DNA of 10,038 nucleotides from a virus (Duplodnaviria; Heunggongvirae; Uroviricota; Caudoviricetes), in IMG/VR virus record IMGVR_UViG_2541047698_000009; one strand, written 5' to 3'. The translations under genes and the position numbers were made by a program. The notes under the pieces were generated by a model. It was not told the origin of the DNA and did no database searches. It saw nothing but the letters and a program-made list of their open reading frames with translations. Below are positions 1 to 10,038 of this stretch, piece by piece (the first letter of the stretch is position 1; each line of letters opens with the position of its first letter).

Positions 1-372
1 TTCCATTTTGCGACCGGAGGATTTACGGGAACCGGCGGCAAATATGAACCTGCGGGGATTGTTCATCGCGGGGAGTTTGTCTTCACGAAGGAGGCGACCA
101 GCCGGATTGGTGTCGGCAATCTGTACCGCCTGATGCGGGGCTATGCGGAAGGTGGTTATGTCGGCGGTGCCGGAAGTCCGGCGCAGATGCGGCGGGCGGA
201 AGGCATTAATTTTAATCAGAACAATCACGTGGTGATTCAGAACGACGGCCCCAACGGGCGGGCAGGGCCGCAGCTGATGAAAGCGGTGTATGAGATGGCC
301 CGCAAGGGGGCACAGGATGAACTCCGGCTGCAGTTGCGTGATGGCGGTATGTTATCAGGGAGCGGTGGATGA
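1..372 (+). CDS. H: Tail tape measure protein, C-terminal 123 codons (5' end outside window)
   Basis: Frame 1 is open from position 1 to TGA at 370-372. Translation ...GGFTGTGGKYEPAGIVHRGEFVFTKEATSRIGVGNLYRLMRGY...NQNNHVVIQNDG... matches the lambda gpH C-terminus as I recall it. The stop overlaps the next start (ATGA at 369-372), as at the lambda H/M junction. Confidence 0.9.
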   Translation, partial: FHFATGGFTGTGGKYEPAGIVHRGEFVFTKEATSRIGVGNLYRLMRGYAEGGYVGGAGSPAQMRRAEGINFNQNNHVVIQNDGPNGRAGPQLMKAVYEMARKGAQDELRLQLRDGGMLSGSGG

Positions 373-698
373 AAACCTTTCGCTGGAAAGTGAAGCCGGA
401 TATGGAGGTGAACTCGCAGCCATCGGTGCGTGAAGTGCGTTTTGGTTACGGGTACTCACAGCGTATGGCGGCAGGGCTGAATGCTGACCTGAAAACATAC
501 AGGGTGACGCTTTCCGTGACCCGGGAGGAGGCCCGGCATCTGGAAGCGTTCCTGGCAGAGCACGGTGGCTGGAAGGCATTTTTGTGGAAGCCACCCTATG
601 CATACCGGCAGATAAAGGTGACCTGTGCCGGGTGGTCTGCGCGGGTCGGGATGTTGCGCGTTGAGTTCAGCGCGGAGTTTAAGCAGGTGGTGAACTGA
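369..698 (+). CDS. M: Tail tip assembly protein M
   Basis: 109-aa ORF, same length as lambda gpM, beginning MKTFRWKVKPDMEVNSQPS. Start overlaps the H stop (ATGA) and stop overlaps the L start (TGATG at 696-700). Confidence 0.93.
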   Translation: MKTFRWKVKPDMEVNSQPSVREVRFGYGYSQRMAAGLNADLKTYRVTLSVTREEARHLEAFLAEHGGWKAFLWKPPYAYRQIKVTCAGWSARVGMLRVEFSAEFKQVVN

Positions 699-1396
699 TG
701 CAGGATATTCGCGAAGAAAGTCTGAACGAGTCGGTTAAGTCAGAGCAGTCACCGCGGGTGGTACTCTGGGAAATCGACCTGACGGTGCAGGGCGGTGAGC
801 GGTATTTTTTCTGCAATGAGCTGAATGAAAAAGGGGAGCCGGTGACCTGGCAGGGGCGTGAATATCAGGCGTACCCGATTGAGGGGAGTGGCTTTGAGAT
901 GAACGGGAAGGGCAGCAGTGCCAGACCATCGCTGACGGTGTCCAATCTGTTTGGTCTGGTCACCGGGATGGCGGAAGACCTGCAGAGTCTGGTGGGGGCC
1001 ACGGTGGTCCGCCGCCGGGTGTATGCCCGTTTTCTGGATGCGGTGAATTTCGTTGCGGGCAATCCGGAGGCGGACCCGGAGCAGGAGCTGAGTGACCGCT
1101 GGGTGGTGGAGCAGATGTCGCAGCTGACAGCCATGACGGCCTCGTTTGTGCTGGCCACACCGACCGAGACGGACGGGGCGCTGTTTCCCGGTCGTATCAT
1201 GCTGGCGAACACCTGTATGTGGACCTACCGCTCTGATGAGTGTGGTTACACGGGCGGGGCTGTGGCGGATGAGTTCGATAAACCCACCACGGATATCCGT
1301 AAGGACAGATGCAGCAAGTGCATGCGCGGGTGTGAACTGCGCAGGAATGTCGGCAATTTTGGCGGTTTCCTTTCCATTAATAAACTTTCGCAGTAA
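698..1396 (+). CDS. L: Tail tip protein L
   Basis: 232-aa ORF, same length as lambda gpL, beginning MQDIREESLNESVKSEQSPRVVLWEIDLT. The C-terminus carries a cysteine cluster (NTCMW, DECGY, DRCSKCMRGCE) consistent with the Fe-S cluster reported for gpL. Confidence 0.93.
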   Translation: MQDIREESLNESVKSEQSPRVVLWEIDLTVQGGERYFFCNELNEKGEPVTWQGREYQAYPIEGSGFEMNGKGSSARPSLTVSNLFGLVTGMAEDLQSLVGATVVRRRVYARFLDAVNFVAGNPEADPEQELSDRWVVEQMSQLTAMTASFVLATPTETDGALFPGRIMLANTCMWTYRSDECGYTGGAVADEFDKPTTDIRKDRCSKCMRGCELRRNVGNFGGFLSINKLSQ

Positions 1397-1406
1397 ATCC
1401 CGGTTT

Positions 1407-2150
1407 ATGACACAGACTGAATCAGCGATTCTGGCGCATGCCCGGCGGTGTGCGCCTGCGGAGTCGTGCGGCTTCGTGATAAGCACGCCGGAGGGGGAGC
1501 GGTATATCCCTTGTGTGAATATTTCCGCGGAGCCGGAGGCGTATTTTCGTATCGCACCGGAAGACTGGCTGCGGGCAGAGATGCAGGGGGAGATTGTGGC
1601 ACTGGTCCACAGTCATCCCGGTGGGCTGCCCTGGCTGAGCGAGGCTGACCGGCGGCTGCAGATAAAAAGCGCACTGCCCTGGTGGCTGGTCTGCCGGGGT
1701 GACATTCACAAATTCCGCTGTGTGCCACATCTGACGGGACGGCGCTTTGAGCACGGGGTGACGGACTGTTACACGCTGTTCCGGGATGCTTATCATCTGG
1801 CGGGGACTGAAATGCCGGATTTTCATCGCGAGGATGACTGGTGGCGCAACGGCCAGAACCTGTACCTGGACAACCTGGCGGAAAACGGCTTTTGCCGGGT
1901 GTCTCCGTCCTCTGCACAGGCAGGCGATGTGCTGCTGTGCTGCTTTGGTTCATCGGTGCCGAATCATGCCGCCGTTTACTGTGGTGACGGCGAGCTGCTG
2001 CACCATATTCCTGAACAACTGAGTAAACGGGAGAGGTATTCCGAAAAATGGCAACGACGAACGCATTCTGTCTGGCGTCACCGCCACTGGCACGCATCCG
2101 CCTTTACGGGGATTTACAACGATTTGGCCGCCGCCTCAGCCTGTATGTGA
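1407..2150 (+). CDS. K: Tail tip assembly protein K (JAB/MPN + NlpC/P60 domains)
   Basis: ATG at 1407 lies 10 nt after the L stop. The 247-aa product has a JAMM-type motif HSHPGGLPWLSEAD (HxHx7Sx2D) and NlpC/P60-like Cys/His (VTDCYTLF, PNHAAVY). The ORF-track start at 1146 is an in-frame upstream extension inside L and is rejected. The exact start is uncertain; I recall lambda K being annotated shorter, from an internal ATG. Confidence 0.85.
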   Translation: MTQTESAILAHARRCAPAESCGFVISTPEGERYIPCVNISAEPEAYFRIAPEDWLRAEMQGEIVALVHSHPGGLPWLSEADRRLQIKSALPWWLVCRGDIHKFRCVPHLTGRRFEHGVTDCYTLFRDAYHLAGTEMPDFHREDDWWRNGQNLYLDNLAENGFCRVSPSSAQAGDVLLCCFGSSVPNHAAVYCGDGELLHHIPEQLSKRERYSEKWQRRTHSVWRHRHWHASAFTGIYNDLAAASACM

Positions 2151-2728
2151 ACACGGCAGCGGAAGCCATTCGCGCCCTGTCGATGCAGATGCCGGGCTTT
2201 CGCCGTCAGATGAACGAAGGCTGGTACCAGATACGTATTGCCGGTGATGACACGGCACCGGAGGCGGTGTACGCCCGTCTTCACGAACAGCTGGGTGAGG
2301 GAACGGTCATCCACATTGTGCCGCGACTGGCCGGGGCCGGAAAGGGTGGACTGCAGATTGTGCTGGGGGCGGCAGCCATCGTGGGCTCTTTCTTCACGGC
2401 CGGTGCCTCGATGGTGTTATGGGGTACAGCCCTGAGTGCCGGCGGTTTTTCTGCCACCACGATGCTGTTTTCACTGGGGGCCAGCATGATACTGGGCGGT
2501 GTGGCCCAGATGCTGGCCCCGAAGGCAAAAACACCGGATTACCGCGCAACGGATAACGGCAGACAGAACACGTACTTTTCCTCACTGGATAACATGATTG
2601 CCCAGGGGAACCCGATGCCGGTGCCTTACGGGGAAATGCTGGTTGGCTCCCGCCGTATATCCCAGGACATCAGCACCCGTGATGAAGGCGGGGGCGGAAA
2701 GGTCGTGGTTATCGGGCGGCAGGGGTAA
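2048..2728 (+). CDS. I: Tail tip assembly protein I
   Basis: 226-aa ORF beginning MATTNAFCLASPPLARIRLYGDLQRFGRR, with a Gly/Ala-rich hydrophobic C-terminal half as in lambda gpI. It overlaps the 3' end of K by 103 nt in another frame, as K/I do in lambda. Confidence 0.88.
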   Translation: MATTNAFCLASPPLARIRLYGDLQRFGRRLSLYVNTAAEAIRALSMQMPGFRRQMNEGWYQIRIAGDDTAPEAVYARLHEQLGEGTVIHIVPRLAGAGKGGLQIVLGAAAIVGSFFTAGASMVLWGTALSAGGFSATTMLFSLGASMILGGVAQMLAPKAKTPDYRATDNGRQNTYFSSLDNMIAQGNPMPVPYGEMLVGSRRISQDISTRDEGGGGKVVVIGRQG

Positions 2729-2774
2729 AAAGAATAAAAAAATCCCGCAGTGATCGCGGACAGGAACTGCGGGA
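2729..2774 (-). terminator. Intrinsic terminator, minus-strand orientation only
   Basis: Perfect 9-bp stem 2743-2751 (TCCCGCAGT) / 2766-2774 (ACTGCGGGA) with a 14-nt loop. On the minus strand it is followed by UUUUUUUAUUCUUU (complement of 2729-2742). On the + strand there is no U-tract after the stem. Confidence 0.6.
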
Positions 2775-2832
2775 GAGTTACGAAGATTAAGTGTAAGGAA
2801 TTATTCTTATATCACGACAAAAAAATTAACGC
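2736..2832 (-). ncRNA. Candidate small non-coding RNA (moron) between I and J; ends approximate
   Basis: Lies between a near-consensus minus-strand promoter (2839-2866) and the minus-strand terminator (2729-2774). No ATG and no ORF longer than 2-3 codons on that strand within the interval. U-rich 5' part and a CU-rich stretch before the terminator stem. Confidence 0.35.
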
Positions 2833-2838
2833 AGAGAA

Positions 2839-2866
2839 ATTATACGCGCCACAGTCAGTTTGTGAA
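2839..2866 (-). promoter_or_regulatory. Putative sigma70 promoter, reads leftward on minus strand
   Basis: Minus-strand reading: -35 TTCACA (complement of 2861-2866, 5/6 to TTGACA), 16-nt spacer, -10 TATAAT (complement of 2839-2844, 6/6). A/T-rich block upstream (2867-2890). Predicted start near 2832. Confidence 0.4.
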
Positions 2867-2930
2867 AATGTGAAGATATTCAGAATTTTTATGCCATTAC
2901 CGGTTTTAACCAACAGGATTATCGGTGGGC

Positions 2931-2974
2931 ATGAAAGAAAACCCCGGTATCTGCTGATACCGGGGTTTCTCTTT
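2931..2974. terminator. Bidirectional intrinsic-terminator-like hairpin
   Basis: Perfect 13-bp stem 2939-2951 (AAACCCCGGTATC) / 2956-2968 (GATACCGGGGTTT) with 4-nt loop TGCT. Followed by TTTCTCTTT on the + strand and by TTTTCTTTC on the minus strand. Confidence 0.5.
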
Positions 2975-3071
2975 AGCATGGCAGAAATGTGTTTCATGCT
3001 TTTCGGGCGAAGGATATCCGACTTCTGTACGGAATGGCAAGTGGCGGTTAATTTATTCAGGGGAAGGCTGT

Positions 3072-6000
3072 ATGGGAAAAGGTGGCGGTAAGGCACACAC
3101 GCCTCGTGAGGCGAAGGATAATCTCAAATCCACGCAGATGATGAGTGTGATTGATGCGATTGGTGAGGGACCGATAGAAGGTCCGGTGAAGGGACAGCAG
3201 AGTATTCTGGTGAACAAAACCCCGCTGACGGACACGGACGGTAATCCCGTGATACACGGTGTGACTGCGGTCTGGCGTGCCGGGGAGCAGGAGCAGACAC
3301 CACCGGAAGGCTTTGAGTCCTCCGGAGCTGAAACCGGACTGGGCGTGGAAGTGACGAAGGCAAAACCGGTGACGCGCACCATTACGTCCGCGAACATTGA
3401 CCGCCTGCGGGTTACCTTCGGGGTGCAGTCACTGGTGCAGACCACGTCAAAGGGCGACCGTAATCCTTCCTCTGTCCGGATTCTGATTCAGTTACAGCGT
3501 AATGGCCGCTGGGTGACGGAAAAGGATGTCACCATTAACGGCAAGACCACCTCGCAGTTCCTGGCCTCGGTGATTCTGGATAATCTGCCTCCCCGGCCCT
3601 TTAACATCCGGATGGTCAGGGAGACGGCGGACAGCACCACGGACCAGCTGCAGAATAAGACGCTGTGGTCGTCATACACCGAAATCATCGATGTGAAACA
3701 GTGCTACCCGAACACGGCCATTGTGGGGCTGCAGGTGGATGCGGAGCAGTTCGGCGGCCAGCAGATGACGGTGAACTACCATATCCGCGGTCGCATCATC
3801 CAGGTGCCGTCAAACTATGACCCGGAAAAACGCACGTACAGTGGTATCTGGGACGGCAGCCTGAAACCGGCATACAGCAACAACCCGGCCTGGTGTCTGT
3901 GGGACATGCTGACTCACCCGCGCTACGGCATGGGAAAACGTCTGGGGGCGGCGGATGTGGACAAGTGGGCGCTGTATGCCATCGGGCAGTACTGCGACCA
4001 GACGGTCCCGGATGGTTTCGGGGGGACCGAGCCGCGGATGACCTTTAATGCGTACCTGGCACAACAGCGTAAGGCGTGGGACGTTCTCAGTGATTTCTGC
4101 TCTGCGATGCGCTGTATGCCGGTATGGAACGGCCAGACGCTGACGTTCGTTCAGGACCGTCCGTCGGATGTGGTGTGGCCGTACACCAACAGCGATGTGG
4201 TGGTGGATGATAACGGCGTGGGTTTCCGCTACAGCTTCAGTGCCCTGAAGGACCGGCACACGGCAGTGGAGGTGAATTACACCGACCCGCAGAACGGCTG
4301 GCAGACCTCCACGGAACTGGTGGAAGACCCGGAAGCCATACTGCGCTACGGACGCAACCTGCTGAAGATGGACGCGTTCGGCTGTACCAGCCGCGGTCAG
4401 GCCCACCGTGCCGGACTGTGGGTGATAAAGACCGAACTGCTGGAAACGCAGACGGTGGATTTCACGCTCGGGTCTCAGGGGCTGCGGCACACACCCGGTG
4501 ACATCATTGAAATCTGTGATAACGACTATGCCGGGACCCTGACCGGCGGACGTGTCCTGTCCATTGATGCTGCCACCCGCACCCTGACGCTGGACCGTGA
4601 AGTGACACTTCCGGAGACCGGTGCCGCCACGGTGAACCTGATTAACGGCAGTGGTAAGCCGGTGAGTGTGGACATCACCGAACACCCCGCGCCGGACCGG
4701 ATACAGGTCAGTACCCTGCCTGATGGTGTGGAGACATACGGGGTGTGGGGACTCTCCCTGCCGTCACTGCGCCGTCGCCTGTTCCGCTGTGTCTCCGTCC
4801 GGGAAAACACGGACGGCACCTTTGCCATCACGGCGGTGCAGCACGTACCGGAAAAAGAAGCCATTGTGGATAACGGGGCCAGCTTTGAGCCGCAGTCAGG
4901 CAGCCTGAACAGCGTTATCCCACCGGCAGTGCAGCACCTGACGGTGGAGGTGAGTGCAGCTGACGGTCAGTATCTGGCACAGGCGAAATGGGACACGCCG
5001 CGGGTGGTGAAGGGTGTGCGCTTCAGTCTGCGTCTGACCAGCGGAAGCGGAGAAGACAGCCGTCTGGTGAGCACCGCCATCACCGCAGACACGGAGCACC
5101 GTTTCAGTGGTCTGCCGCTGGGGGAATACACCCTGACGGTGCGGGCCATTAACAGCTACGGCCAGCAGGGCGAACCTGCGACCACCACCTTCCGGATTAA
5201 CGCGCCTGCAAAACCCGCCACCATTGAGCTGACGCCGGGGTATTTTCAGATAACGGCGGTACCGGTGCTGGCGGTGTATGACCCGACGGTGCAGTTTGAG
5301 TTCTGGTTTTCGGAAAAACGCATCACGAACACGGCACAGGTGGAAAAATCTGCCCGTTATCTGGGGACCGGCAGTCAGTGGACTGTCCAGGGCGATCGGA
5401 TTAAGCCGGGGATGGATTTCTGGTTTTATGTGCGCAGTGTCAACCTGGTGGGCAAGTCTGCATTTGTGGAAGCCAGCGGGCAGGCCAGCAATGATGCAAA
5501 AGGGTATCTGGAATTTTTCCGTGGTCTGATAGATGAGACGCTTCTGGGCCAGGCACTGAAAGAGCGCATTGATGCTTCAGCGCTGCGTACGGAGGTCACG
5601 CAACTGGAAGAAGACATCCGTCAGCGGATGGACACGGATATCGCAGAAGTGACCCGGAAAATCGGGGAGGCGGAAAACAGCCTCACGCAGCTGGTTGCGA
5701 AAAAGAATGAGGACCAGACACTGGCCATCGCGCAGGTGAGCCAGAAAGTGGACCGGGTGAGCAGTGAAATCTCACAGACTGTCAGCCAGGGGCAGTCAGA
5801 AAATGCCCGACAGATAGCACAGGTCCGCCAGTACGTGGATAAAAAAGGGAGTGAAATTACCTCGACCACGGATAAAAAACTGGGTGACCAGGCCGTGACC
5901 ATACAGCAAATCCAGCGGGTTCAGTCAGACACGCGCAATGAGCTGAATGCCATGTATATGCTGAAGGTGCAGAAAACAAAAAACGGTATTCCCTATGTGG

Positions 6001-6764
6001 CCGGGATTGGTGCGGGGATTGAGGATGTTGATGGTCAGACGCTGAGCAGTATTCTGCTGCAGGCGGACCGTATCGCGATGATTACCCCGGAGAATGGCAA
6101 CACCACGCCGCTGTTTGTGGCGCAGGGGAATCAGCTGTTCATGAACGACGTGTTCCTGAAGCGACTGTTTGCGGTGAGCATCACGTCATCCGGCAATCCT
6201 CCTACGTTTTCCCTGACGCCGGATGGCAGGCTGGCAGCCCGCAATGCGGATATCAGTGGAGCCATCACGGCGAATACCGGCACGCTCAATAATGTCACCA
6301 TTAACGAGAACTGTGTCATCAGAGGGAAACTGTCTGCAAACCAGATTGAAGGCGATCTCGTTAAAACAGTGGGTAAGGCTTTCCCCCGTGACTCCCGTGC
6401 ACCGGAGAGGTGGCCATCAGGGACCATTACCGTCAGGGTTTATGACGATCAGCCGTTTGACCGGCAAATTGTTATTCCGGCGGTGGCATTCAGCGGTGCC
6501 AGACATGAGCGGGAGAATAACGATATTTATTCGTCATGCCGCCTGATAGTACGGAAAAACGGTGCTGAAATTTATAACCGTACCGCGCTGGATAATACGC
6601 TGGTTTACAGTGGTGTTATTGATATGCCTGCTGGTCGCGGCCACATGACGCTGGAGTTTTCTGTATCAGCATGGTGGGTAAATGGCTGGTATCCCACAGC
6701 AAGTATCAGCGATTTGCTGGTTGTTGTGATGAAGAAAGCCACTGCAGGCATCACGATTAGCTGA
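3072..6764 (+). CDS. J: Host specificity protein J (central tail fibre / tail tip)
   Basis: 1230-aa ORF; N-terminus [39 protein letters not shown] and long internal stretches ([95 protein letters not shown]) match lambda gpJ as I recall it. RBS-like GGGGAAGG upstream of the ATG. Confidence 0.95.
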
Positions 6765-6783
6765 ATTTTATAACCCCAATACG

Positions 6784-6807
6784 GGCGCCAGAAATGGCGC
6801 CTTTTTT
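6784..6807 (+). terminator. Intrinsic terminator after J
   Basis: GC stem GGCGCC (6784-6789) / GGCGCC (6796-6801), 6-nt loop AGAAAT, followed by TTTTTT (6802-6807). Confidence 0.6.
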
Positions 6808-6831
6808 ATTGCAGAAAAGCGAGAGGTAATT

Positions 6832-7431
6832 ATGCGTAAATTATGTGCTGTTATTCTGTCCGCAGTAGTCTGGCTGGTTGCCGCTGGTACACCAGCGAGC
6901 GCAGCAGAGCATCAGTCCACACTAAGCGCCGGGTATCTTCAGACCCACACTGATATGCCAGGCAGCGATAATCTGAACGGGATTAACGTGAAATACCGTT
7001 ATGAGTTTACGGACGCGCTGGGGCTGATTACGTCCTTCAGTTATGCCAATGCTGAGGATGAGCAAAAAACGCACTACAGCGATACCCGCTGGCATGAAGA
7101 TTCCGTGCGTAACCGCTGGTTCAGCGTGATGGCGGGGCCATCTGTACGCGTGAATGAATGGTTCAGTGCTTATGCGATGGCAGGTGTGGCTTACAGCCGT
7201 GTGTCGACGTTCTCCGGGGATTATCTCCGCGTAACTGACAACAAGGGGAAAACGCACGATGTGCTGACCGGAAGTGATGACGATCGCCACAGCAACACGT
7301 CTCTGGCGTGGGGAGCTGGCGTGCAGTTTAACCCGACCGAATCCGTGACCATTGATATTGCTTATGAAGGTTCCGGTAGTGGCGACTGGCGAACGGATGC
7401 ATTTATTGTTGGTATCGGATACCGTTTCTGA
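6832..7431 (+). CDS. lom: Lom-like outer membrane beta-barrel protein (Ail/Lom/PagC family)
   Basis: 199-aa ORF with a signal peptide (MRKLCAVILSAVVWLVAAGTPASA then AEHQ). Conserved blocks GINVKYRYE, SVMAGP, SAYAMAGVA, DIAYEGSGSGDWRTD and terminal GIGYRF match lambda Lom as I recall it. RBS GAGAGG 6 nt upstream; sits directly after J as in lambda. Confidence 0.93.
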   Translation: MRKLCAVILSAVVWLVAAGTPASAAEHQSTLSAGYLQTHTDMPGSDNLNGINVKYRYEFTDALGLITSFSYANAEDEQKTHYSDTRWHEDSVRNRWFSVMAGPSVRVNEWFSAYAMAGVAYSRVSTFSGDYLRVTDNKGKTHDVLTGSDDDRHSNTSLAWGAGVQFNPTESVTIDIAYEGSGSGDWRTDAFIVGIGYRF

Positions 7432-7536
7432 CAACAGACGCCGATTTATCTTCTGTAAATATTGTTATGATACGCAGGTTCATCCGCCTTATGGGGTGAA
7501 CTGCGTTTGAGGAAACGTAAAGTTACACTGTCCTGA

Positions 7537-7568
7537 AGCCCGTGGCGTCACTGCTGCGGGCTTTTTTT
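7537..7568 (+). terminator. Intrinsic terminator after lom
   Basis: Stem AGCCCG (7537-7542) / CGGGCT (7556-7561) with a 13-nt loop, followed by TTTTTTT (7562-7568). Confidence 0.55.
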
Positions 7569-7582
7569 ATTGGTGGAAAAGT

Positions 7583-9055
7583 ATGACAGTAAAAATTTCT
7601 GGCGTGCTTAAAGATGGCACAGGAAAACCAGTACAGAACTGCACCATTGTGCTGAAGGCCAGACGGACCAGCAGCACGGTGGTGGTGAACACGGTGGCCT
7701 CTGAAAATCCGGATGAAGCCGGGCGTTACAGCATGGATGTTGAGTATGGCCAGTACAGCGTCACCCTGCTGGTTGAAGATTTTCCGCCTTCACATGCCGG
7801 GACCATTACCGTCTATGAAGGTTCCAGACCAGGTACGCTGAATGATTTTCTCGGCGCCATGACGGAGGATGATGTTCGTCCGGAGGCACTGCGCCGTTTT
7901 GAGCTGATGGTGAATGAAGTGGCACGTCATGCCGGAGCGTCATCACAGAGTGCAGCGGCGGCAAAGAAATCCGAAACGGCAGCAGCCTCATCGAAGAATG
8001 CGGCGAAAACCTCAGAAACGAATGCAGCTAACAGCGCACAGGCGGCAGCGGCCTCGCAGACTGCATCGGCAAACTCCGCGACAGCAGCCAAAAAATCAGA
8101 AACCAGCGCGAAAAATAGCGAGACAGCCACAAAGGCCAGCGAAAAAAACGCAAAATCCAGCCAGACGGCAGCGAAAACCAGTGAGACGAATGCCAAAGAC
8201 AGTGAAGCCAACGCAAAGGTGAGCGAAACAGCGGCGGCGAACTCGGCGAAAGCATCGGCAGCAAGCCAGACGGCAGCAAAAGCAAGTGAAGATGCTGCCA
8301 GAGAATACGCAAACCAGACAGCAGAGCCGTACAGATATGTTTTACAGCCGCTGCCGGATGTGTGGATACCCTTTAATGATTCGCTGGATATGATTACGGG
8401 CTATTCTCCGGGTTATAAAAAAGTGAAGATTGGTGATAATGTGGTTCAGGTTGCCAGTGATAAACAGGTTAATTTCAGTCGCGCATCAACGGCAACATAT
8501 ATCAACAAATCTGGCGAACTGAAAACGGCGGAAATTAATGAGCCACGATTTGAGTGTGATGGCCTGCTTATTGAGGGGCAAAGAACGAACTTCTTCCCGA
8601 ACAGTACAGACCCTTCGAAGTGGAATAAGTCAACTTCACTGGACGTTACAGAAACAGGCACAGATAGTTTCGGGTTTAATTATGGCCGGTTTGTCGTACA
8701 GGATTCGATTGTTGGTACAAGTAAAGCGCATACCATTATCGGACTGTATTCGAGTGCCGGAGGGGTTGATACTTCAGGGGACGAAAAGCATGTAACTATA
8801 TCCTGTCGGGTAAAAAGTGAAGTTGATAATATCGCCGTTCGTATTTTATTTGAACATTATGATGGGGAGGTAAGGACATCAATAGGAGCAGCAAACCTGA
8901 ACCTTACCACCCGCATAATTAGCAAGACAGGTCAGACAAGCCGTGTTACAGCAAGGTCTGTTAAGGATGATGCAACTGGCTGGATATTTTTTGAGGCTAC
9001 ATTAAAAGCAGATACAACAGAAAATACGGTTGGTGGTTTTGTCCAGTATTCGTAA
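7583..9055 (+). CDS. stf: Side tail fibre protein (Stf-like), probably 3'-truncated by IS insertion
   Basis: N-terminus MTVKISGVLKDGTGKPVQNCTIVLKARRTSSTVVVNTVASENPDEAGRYSMDVEYGQYSV matches lambda Stf (orf-401) as I recall it, followed by Ala/Ser/Thr/Lys-rich degenerate repeats typical of fibre shafts. RBS GGTGGA upstream. The stop TAA (9053-9055) lies inside the sequence GTAAGCG that I take to be the IS66-family terminus. Confidence 0.8.
   Translation: MTVKISGVLKDGTGKPVQNCTIVLKARRTSSTVVVNTVASENPDEAGRYSMDVEYGQYSVTLLVEDFPPSHAGTITVYEGSRPGTLNDFLGAMTEDDVRPEALRRFELMVNEVARHAGASSQSAAAAKKSETAAASSKNAAKTSETNAANSAQAAAASQTASANSATAAKKSETSAKNSETATKASEKNAKSSQTAAKTSETNAKDSEANAKVSETAAANSAKASAASQTAAKASEDAAREYANQTAEPYRYVLQPLPDVWIPFNDSLDMITGYSPGYKKVKIGDNVVQVASDKQVNFSRASTATYINKSGELKTAEINEPRFECDGLLIEGQRTNFFPNSTDPSKWNKSTSLDVTETGTDSFGFNYGRFVVQDSIVGTSKAHTIIGLYSSAGGVDTSGDEKHVTISCRVKSEVDNIAVRILFEHYDGEVRTSIGAANLNLTTRIISKTGQTSRVTARSVKDDATGWIFFEATLKADTTENTVGGFVQYS
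7952..8300 (+). repeat. Degenerate tandem repeats encoding the Ala/Ser/Thr/Lys-rich Stf shaft
   Basis: Recurring nucleotide units of the form AAA(A/T)C(C/A)GA(A/G)AC(G/C)...GCAGC, giving peptide repeats AAKKSETAAASS / AAKTSETNAANS / AAKKSETSAKNS / AAKTSETNAKDS / AKVSETAAANS. They generate the spurious overlapping ORFs 7914-8222 (+) and 7927-8211 (-). Confidence 0.6.
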
Positions 9056-9136
9056 GCGTAAAGCCAATGCCGTCTGTAACACCTGCTCCTTGCAGACTAA
9101 ATTAGAGCTCCTTCTAAATTAGACGGAGTTCTATTG

Positions 9137-9571
9137 ATGGATAAACCTACAGACTGGCGCTCCGGAACCCGCCGGATATTTTCTAATGAATTTAAACTTC
9201 ATATGGTTGAACTGGCTTCGAAACCAAATGCCAATGTTGCACAACTGGCCCGGGAACATGGCGTTGATAACAACCTGATTTTTAAATGGCTACGCCTCTG
9301 GCAAAGAGAAGGACGTATTTCTCGTAGAATGCCTCCAACTATTGTAGGCCCTACAGTATCACAATCTTTTCCGGCCTCTCCGACTCTGGTTCCAGTGGAA
9401 CTTATCGACACCCCGCGCTGTGCTACAGATGCTCCTGCTCCGGAGGCATTATCAGTTGCTTGTGCAGCTTCCTGCCATGTGGAATTCCATTACGGTAAAA
9501 TGATGCTGGAAAATCCTTCACCAGAGCTGCTCACGGTGTTGATCCGTGAGCTGACCGGGAGGGGACGATGA
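9137..9571 (+). CDS. tnpA: IS66-family accessory protein (orf1/TnpA-like, HTH)
   Basis: 144-aa ORF from ATG 9137 (the ORF-track start at 9134 is a TTG one codon upstream); RBS GGAG at 9125-9128. Sequence MDKPTDWRSGTRRIFSNEFKLHMVELASKPNANVAQLAREHGVDNNLIFKWLRLW is typical of IS66 orf1 proteins. Confidence 0.82.
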   Translation: MDKPTDWRSGTRRIFSNEFKLHMVELASKPNANVAQLAREHGVDNNLIFKWLRLWQREGRISRRMPPTIVGPTVSQSFPASPTLVPVELIDTPRCATDAPAPEALSVACAASCHVEFHYGKMMLENPSPELLTVLIRELTGRGR

Positions 9572-9918
9572 TTTCACTCCCATCAGGTACCCGTATCTGG
9601 CTCGTTGCCGGCGTTACTGATATGCGTAAATCCTTCAACGGTCTGGGGGAGCAGATACAGCATGTGCTGGATGATAACCCCTTCTCCGGTCACCTGTTTA
9701 TCTTCCGTGGCCGACGGGGAGACACGATTAAAATCCTGTGGGCTGATGCTGATGGTCTGTGCCTGTTCACCAAACGCCTTGAGGAAGGTCAGTTTATCTG
9801 GCCTGCGGTGCGTGACGGTAAGATATCCATTACCCGCTCGCAACTGGCAATGCTCCTCGATAAGCTGGACTGGCGTCAGCCAAAAACATCCCGCCTTAAC
9901 GCACTGACAATGTTGTAA
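9568..9918 (+). CDS. tnpB: IS66-family accessory protein TnpB (orf2)
   Basis: 116-aa ORF overlapping orf1 by ATGA. Sequence MISLPSGTRIWLVAGVTDMRKSFNGLGEQIQ...LFIFRGRRGDTIKILWADADGLCLFTKRLEEGQFIWP is characteristic of IS66 TnpB. Confidence 0.85.
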   Translation: MISLPSGTRIWLVAGVTDMRKSFNGLGEQIQHVLDDNPFSGHLFIFRGRRGDTIKILWADADGLCLFTKRLEEGQFIWPAVRDGKISITRSQLAMLLDKLDWRQPKTSRLNALTML

Positions 9919-9948
9919 AAAACTCCTGACCGCATTATAAAAACGGCC

Positions 9949-10038
9949 ATGAGTCAGAAATACCTCATTCGCATCGCTGAGCTGGAAAGGCTGCTCTCTG
10001 AGCAGGCTGAAGCCCTCCGTCAGAAAGACCAGCAACTG
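9949..10038 (+). CDS. tnpC: IS66-family transposase (orf3/TnpC), N-terminal 30 codons only
   Basis: ATG at 9949, 30 nt after the TnpB stop. MSQKYLIRIAELERLLSEQAEALRQKDQQL is the leucine-zipper-like N-terminus typical of IS66 transposases. Open to the window end. Confidence 0.7.
   Translation, partial: MSQKYLIRIAELERLLSEQAEALRQKDQQL

Follow-up and report, generated by a model that had tools for sequence, protein, structure and literature searches.

In phage lambda, the side tail fibers accelerate adsorption 10-30-fold, do not affect plaque number and are non-essential, and the stf frameshift of the laboratory strain blocks their synthesis and assembly (PMC12617516). Insertion sequences (IS) of the IS66 family carry inverted repeats that begin with GTAAGCG (PMC12888890), and insertion of ISEc43 into ORF S023 of SGI1-B-Ec1 generates an 8-bp direct repeat (PMC6531882). 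Here, we analyzed a stretch of 10,038 nucleotides, in the following referred to as the window, from a lambda-type prophage of E. coli HVH 25. Its right part very likely reflects the transposition of an ISEc43-type element into codon 490 of stf as a simple insertion, with the left inverted repeat (IRL) placed beside the proximal part of the gene.

As in lambda PaPa, stf is located after J and lom, encodes a homologous collar, and only an N-terminal fragment is translated. However, the lesion in lambda PaPa is a 1-bp frameshift, whereas the lesion in HVH 25 is an IS insertion. Moreover, this Stf departs from that of lambda in its distal half, which contains an NF048003 domain and lacks a T4 gp37-like tip, and two small ORFs of unknown function are found downstream of this stf family at the place where lambda has tfa. 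The element shares its terminus, the gene order tnpA-tnpB-tnpC and all of the 987 bp visible here with ISEc43-type insertions such as those in SGI1-B-Ec1, plasmid p1LS4 and O104:H4 chromosomes. It differs from other ISEc43 copies in its target, stf nt 1462-1469, which was occupied in none of the other genomes, phage records, IMG/VR contigs and metagenomes searched, and in that only its left end is visible. Taken together, the locus is a routine case of an IS insertion that pseudogenizes an accessory prophage tail gene, and neither the element nor the gene family is new. The present analysis adds the assignment of the IS to the ISEc43 type, the intradomain position of the cut, and the finding that a scaffold gap closes the window, beyond which lies a second, intact stf that probably belongs to another prophage.

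Source contig and tail module

Scaffold KE699054.1 in the 2013 draft genome of E. coli HVH 25 (4-5851939; GCA_000456365.1) contains the window as its nt 1-10038. A run of 10 Ns follows at positions 10039-10048, and thus the window represents an entire contig, the end of which falls within the IS. The truncated Stf protein has an exact-sequence match in one assembly only, that of E. coli HVH 25.

Gene predictions and their Pfam families delineate a lambda-type tail module 5′ of stf (1..7431, + strand), which comprises, all on the same strand, the 3′-end of the tape-measure gene (1-372), M (369-698), L (698-1396), K (1407-2150), I (2147-2728), J (3072-6764) and lom (6832-7431). When compared with relatives, the genes from M to lom are of full length, and gene order and lengths match those of CFT073, SCU-172, AR_0013 and WP4-S17-ESBL-08. 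Between I and J, 344 nt without annotation (2729-3071) are conserved among related prophages and include a 113-aa ORF starting with GTG (2750-3091) that yielded no PHROG match.

The stf gene and its domains

The truncated stf ORF (7583..9055, + strand) starts with ATG and consists of 490 codons and an IS-borne stop; in GenBank it is recorded as EQN83766.1, hypothetical protein G701_05343. The stf-derived DNA extends over positions 7583..9051 (+ strand), equivalent to nt 1-1469 of a 2,064-nt gene, and is 99.66% identical to the intact stf of CFT073 (2,064 nt, 687 aa, WP_000216560.1), with 5 mismatches in 1,469 nt. Among complete E. coli genomes, the best matches extend over nt 1-1469 of stf and no further, with 99.7% identity.

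Several features identify the gene as a lambda-type stf. It directly follows J and lom, and its product carries the N-terminal collar/tail-attachment domain (PF08400, aa 1-131, E 7e-68). Moreover, aa 1-94 match the collar domain of Ur-lambda Stf (PDB 9E7M/9MGH, E 2.4e-47), so that the parallel drawn in the preliminary description to laboratory lambda with its stf frameshift (PMC12617516) is apt. The homolog of phage PhiR49_2 is annotated as 'side tail fiber protein Stf'. CFT073 and two phages, Lambda_ev243 and PhiR49_2, encode intact homologs with lengths of 687-689 aa, and in each case the same pair of small ORFs comes next. These two ORFs (92 and 97 aa) belong to PHROGs of unknown function, and tfa is represented by fragments only, located further downstream.

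The distal part of the intact protein is of a different kind. A domain of the GTA head-spike-fiber type (NF048003) spans aa 329-530 (E 1e-18; window 8567-9051; positions 4985-5590 of locus L001), and the head spike fiber of RcGTA from Rhodobacter capsulatus (6TB9) matches intact Stf weakly (E 0.0056). The last 157 aa of the intact homolog have no family match, and neither a lambda-like distal tip nor a downstream Tfa chaperone gene was found there. This module is also attached to a different N-terminus in a fiber of an M1/5 prophage. The shaft of Stf (window 7930-8330, aa ~117-250) is a low-complexity repeat region rich in Ala, Ser, Thr and Lys, and its repeats cause spurious weak matches to DnaX and adenylate kinase models.

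The ISEc43-type element

Positions 9052..10038 (+ strand) comprise the left 987 bp (39%) of an ISEc43-type IS66-family element, an IS that is common in E. coli, and are 100% identical to the copies of p1LS4 and O104:H4. The matching transposase is called 'IS66-like element ISEc43 family' by PGAP, and some near-identical copies are labeled ISEc47. The left terminal inverted repeat (9052..9075, + strand) contains the perfect core GTAAGCGT and matches the reference right end in 16 of 24 nt; IRL and the right inverted repeat (IRR), the latter taken from reference copies, share a perfect core of 8 nt. The three-ORF organization of IS66 is present, with an HTH gene, an IS66 Orf2 gene and the start of a transposase gene. 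The tnpA gene (9137..9571, + strand; 144 aa; PF01527, E 1.9e-10) has the length and position of the reference WP_001309734.1, its matches to NF047595 and NF038385 being below the cut-offs of these models. It is followed by the accessory gene tnpB (9568..9918, + strand; 116 aa; PF05717, E 3e-36; NF033819, E 6e-35) and by the first 30 codons of tnpC, encoding the DDE transposase, which is cut by the end of the contig (9949..10038, + strand). These 30 codons are identical to those of the reference copy L002 and begin at the same offset; the complete TnpC of that copy (537 aa) matches PF03050, PF13005, PF13007 and PF13817 (DDE_Tnp_IS66, zf-IS66, LZ_Tnp_IS66) as well as NF033517.

The termini of the element were defined with reference copies. 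Nine of the ten copies fetched have the exact left end, the exception being mismatched there (L007). Among these nine, the NCTC9112 copy (L014) is without the exact right end, and one insertion is represented by two loci from sister strains, so that the number of distinct full-length sites is seven. In the reference copies, the full element comprises 2,541 bp, starts with GTAAGCGT and ends with ACGCTTAC. At six of the seven distinct sites perfect 8-bp direct repeats adjoin the element, one directly before GTAAGCGT and one directly after ACGCTTAC; at the remaining site (L010), which lies among other IS fragments, the flanks do not match. The duplications read GACCATTC, ACCATTTC, GTATAACT, CATAATCT, GAGTGTTA and ACTTATTT and have an A+T-rich 3′ half, as does CAGTATTC next to the element in the window. 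BLAST matches of the window to other ISEc43 copies extend 3-12 nt beyond the IS end, into 9040-9051 (L002, L003, L008, L009, L011, L012), because the target sites are alike, with an A+T-rich 3′ half that often ends in ATTC, TTTC or TATT. This likeness hints at a target preference of ISEc43.

The junction between stf and the IS

The homology to CFT073 stf ends at nt 1469, corresponding to window position 9051, and the break lies between 9051 and 9052. Up to this point both sequences contain CAGTATTC, which is followed by GTAAGCG in the window and by TCCGGAT in CFT073; past the break, the window continues with GTAAGCGTAAAG and CFT073 with TCCGGATACAGG. The target site CAGTATTC (9044..9051, + strand) abuts the IS terminus and would be the left copy of the expected 8-bp duplication.

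The preliminary description had placed the left end of an IS66-family element at this site and had proposed that the element supplies the stop codon of stf. Both claims hold. The frame stays open from 7583 until the TAA at 9053..9055 (+ strand) inside GTAAGCG, this TAA consists of bases 2-4 of the IS, and the duplications flanking the reference copies fix the left terminus at the G in position 9052. Likewise, the uninterrupted gene was rightly expected to continue, as it does for 197 more codons in CFT073, Lambda_ev243 and PhiR49_2. The reference termini and the homologs exclude the alternative that the IS starts after 9055, at the second GTAA, and that intact genes share this TAA as their stop.

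The last codon, TCG (Ser490, 9050-9052), is composed of two stf bases and the first base of the IS. The immediate stop is a 1-in-3 coincidence of frame, as in the other two frames 17 or 23 IS-encoded codons would precede a stop. GTAAGCG occurs once in the window, at 9052-9058, with 0.9 occurrences expected by chance; the bare 7-mer is not significant, and its meaning is set by the comparison with intact stf and the reference ISEc43. The junction is almost certainly genuine, because the breakpoint coincides to the base with an independently defined IS terminus and because no shared sequence is available there to make a chimeric join. Scans of the junction region with Rfam and for promoters, terminators and repeats revealed nothing relevant. 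A second CAGTATTC is present at 6047-6054 inside J; with 0.23 occurrences expected per window, it is attributable to chance and unrelated to the IS.

Truncation of Stf and its probable consequences

The product is cut at residue 490 of 687, which removes 197 residues. Since NF048003 spans aa 329-530, the cut at aa 490 is intradomain: the 490-aa product retains the N-terminal collar and the Ala/Ser/Thr/Lys-rich shaft and loses the last ~40 residues of the spike-fiber domain together with the whole distal C-terminal region of 157 aa. The truncated protein no longer scores against NF048003. Distal fiber domains are normally needed for trimerization and receptor binding, and the truncated Stf would for this reason be unable to form a functional receptor-binding fiber; the side fibers of the phage are likely to be non-functional or absent.

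If the insertion is simple, a second copy of CAGTATTC and the distal 595 nt of stf should lie 2.5 kb downstream, and the right junction should read ...ACGCTTAC-CAGTATTC-TCCGGATACAGG, that is ...CCGTTGACGCTTAC-CAGTATTC-TCCGGATACAGGG. The two small ORFs 3′ of stf, moved 2.5 kb further away, would be uncoupled from late transcription. Since the fibers of lambda affect the speed of adsorption and not plaque number, slower adsorption is to be expected here rather than a loss of viability. If the prophage is inducible, its particles would be devoid of functional side fibers and would adsorb by J alone, more slowly, as laboratory lambda does, possibly with a narrower host interaction, and would still be viable. 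The locus would thereby provide another example, beside lambda PaPa, of the erosion of accessory tail genes in prophages, in this case driven by an IS.

The second stf copy and the assignment of the junction

Beyond the 10-N gap the scaffold contains a second stf (stf2; scaffold 10049-12068, locus L004), which starts at stf nt 45, continues past the insertion site without interruption and ends at its natural stop. Hence, HVH 25 retains at least one intact stf paralog. On its 3′ side, stf2 is followed by the same two small ORFs and then by zinT, msrQP, hiuH and hprRS. It is 98.4% identical to the window copy (stf1), with all 23 differences located upstream of nt 1175.

The two contigs resemble different types of prophages. 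The J-lom-stf region of the window is 98.8% identical to the potB prophage of CFT073 and 98.6% identical to the trp-adjacent prophage of AR_0013, and it is 95.9% identical to the prophage of SCU-172, with a break in the lom-stf spacer. The DNA of stf2, in turn, is 99.6% identical to the zinT-adjacent prophage of SCU-172. The contigs therefore look like parts of two prophages, and the 10-N join is probably repeat-driven, linking two different prophages.

This raises the question of whether the junction itself has been assigned to the right copy. No difference separates stf1 from stf2 in the last 295 nt before the junction, and it is therefore the phasing by the assembler that places the IS in the J-lom-stf copy. 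It is conceivable, although rather improbable, that a real stf::IS junction belonging to another stf paralog or prophage was joined to the window copy, the link past the gap being a repeat artifact. At least three HVH 25 genes share the 3′ module, namely stf1, stf2 and a fiber gene of the M1/5 type, and the stretches over which stf1 equals stf2 (nt 418-1156 and 1175-1469) are longer than short reads. Moreover, the J protein of the window, searched for as an exact sequence, was found in HVH 25 and in no other assembly, and the tail genes of the window are of the potB/trp type (98.1-98.8%), whereas the DNA past the gap is of the zinT type (99.6%, SCU-172). However, three variants specific for stf1 (nt 1157, 1161 and 1174) share a contig with the junction and are no more than 312 nt away from it, which argues for the assignment to stf1. 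Mis-phasing would in any case not alter the finding that one stf copy of HVH 25 is truncated by ISEc43 at this very base.

Simple insertion and its alternatives

In an alternative to the simple insertion, the DNA to the right of the IS may have been replaced, either by recombination among copies of ISEc43 or by an adjacent deletion or inversion that the IS mediated, such that the left junction is genuine while the distal part of stf, the two small ORFs and the end of the prophage were deleted or moved. We regard such a rearrangement as distinctly unlikely. The right end of the IS lies beyond the contig, which stops at IS nt 987, and the reference site without matching flanks (L010, one of seven) shows that such events happen; six of the seven distinct reference sites are, on the other hand, simple insertions with duplications.

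Searches for the sequences in question gave the following results. None of the 5,426 complete RefSeq E. coli genomes covers at least 80% of the left-junction query, and the left junction was likewise found in no GTDB representative, nor in IMG/VR, the INPHARED phages or the JGI metagenomes, so that the junction is present in no other genome searched. The predicted right junction (ACGCTTAC-CAGTATTC-TCCGG...) was found neither in the fetched loci nor in GTDB representatives or JGI metagenomes. For the distal remnant, gene callers give a 192-aa ORF starting from Met496, of which four variants were subjected to exact look-up; contig look-ups of three variants yielded none in HVH 25. Both the uniqueness of the junction and the lack of a distal remnant of the window copy in HVH 25 would fit a rearrangement. 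The missing remnant is, however, expected for a simple insertion as well, since assembly would fail for a short fragment between repeats, and only exact guessed sequences were covered by the look-up.

Other disrupted alleles of this stf family bear on the same question. They were compared at the loci L016, L022, L024/L028, L026, L031, L043 and L030, a sample chosen via look-up of remnant ORFs and thus uninformative on rates. Insertions were found of IS600 at stf nt ~654-666 in AR_0013, of an IS21-family element at nt 864-870 (L022), and of IS3-family elements at nt 1134-1140 (L031), nt 1223-1226 in WP4-S17-ESBL-08, nt 1290-1295 (L043) and nt 1332-1337 (L024 and L028). The genomes with disrupted alleles include UMEA 3172-1 (IS3 family) and GCA_964043865.1 (IS21 family). 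In addition, the L030 allele has a 178-nt internal deletion in stf. Like the window copy, the other IS-split alleles belong to the same gene family, occupy the same place in the prophage and leave an N-terminal ORF with PF08400; they differ in the IS family and in the position relative to nt 1469, and in that both halves of the gene are located on one contig. In all six, both stf halves flank the IS, which argues against a rearrangement and makes a simple insertion the default expectation in HVH 25.

These alleles show that disruption of this stf family is commonplace. It is a long shot, and put forward as such, that the recurrent independent inactivation of stf in E. coli lysogens (by seven IS at seven positions, that of HVH 25 included, and by a deletion) reflects selection against side-fiber production and not neutral decay. 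Such selection might arise if rapid adsorption carried a cost where populations are dense or structured, or if expression of the fibers harmed the lysogen. As an alternative long shot, an IS-mediated fusion of two prophages may be hidden to the right of the IS in HVH 25.

Finally, one may take the TAA at 9053-9055 for the regular stop of a naturally short stf allele, with the IS just downstream or at the gene end. This notion has as its one argument the coincidence of a stop codon with the junction, and it is refuted with near certainty by the CFT073 alignment and the reference IS termini, given that this TAA lies inside the IS, that GTAAGCGTAA follows unrelated flanks in every reference copy, and that all homologs read through the site for 197 more codons.

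Annotation of the locus and a third fiber gene

In light of the preferred reading, a simple insertion of ISEc43 into stf1, EQN83766.1 (G701_05343) would be better labeled as an IS-truncated side-tail-fiber pseudogene, and the 10-N join in KE699054.1 should not be taken as real adjacency. Since the junction was found in none of the other database sequences searched, it could be used to mark the strain HVH 25.

A homolog search with aa 491-687 retrieved a 108-aa protein of HVH 25 (P0017), encoded at the end of scaffold KE699042.1. It was a candidate for the missing 3′-end of stf, as its contig starts 51 nt before the first stf2 difference. This candidate was rejected, because the same sequence in M1/5 ends a different fiber gene of 598 aa, which is part of a dgcM/zntB prophage with unrelated tail genes and shares with stf only its 3′ 1,326 nt, at 88%. 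At the end of KE699042.1 (locus L006, 1-2200), the 3′-end of this third fiber gene and an 88-aa ORF are joined at nt 767/768 directly to a prophage integrase. In M1/5 these two pieces are located at opposite ends of one prophage of ~54 kb between dgcM and zntB, and the arrangement in HVH 25 is therefore an attP-like junction, formed by either a circular or a tandem prophage.
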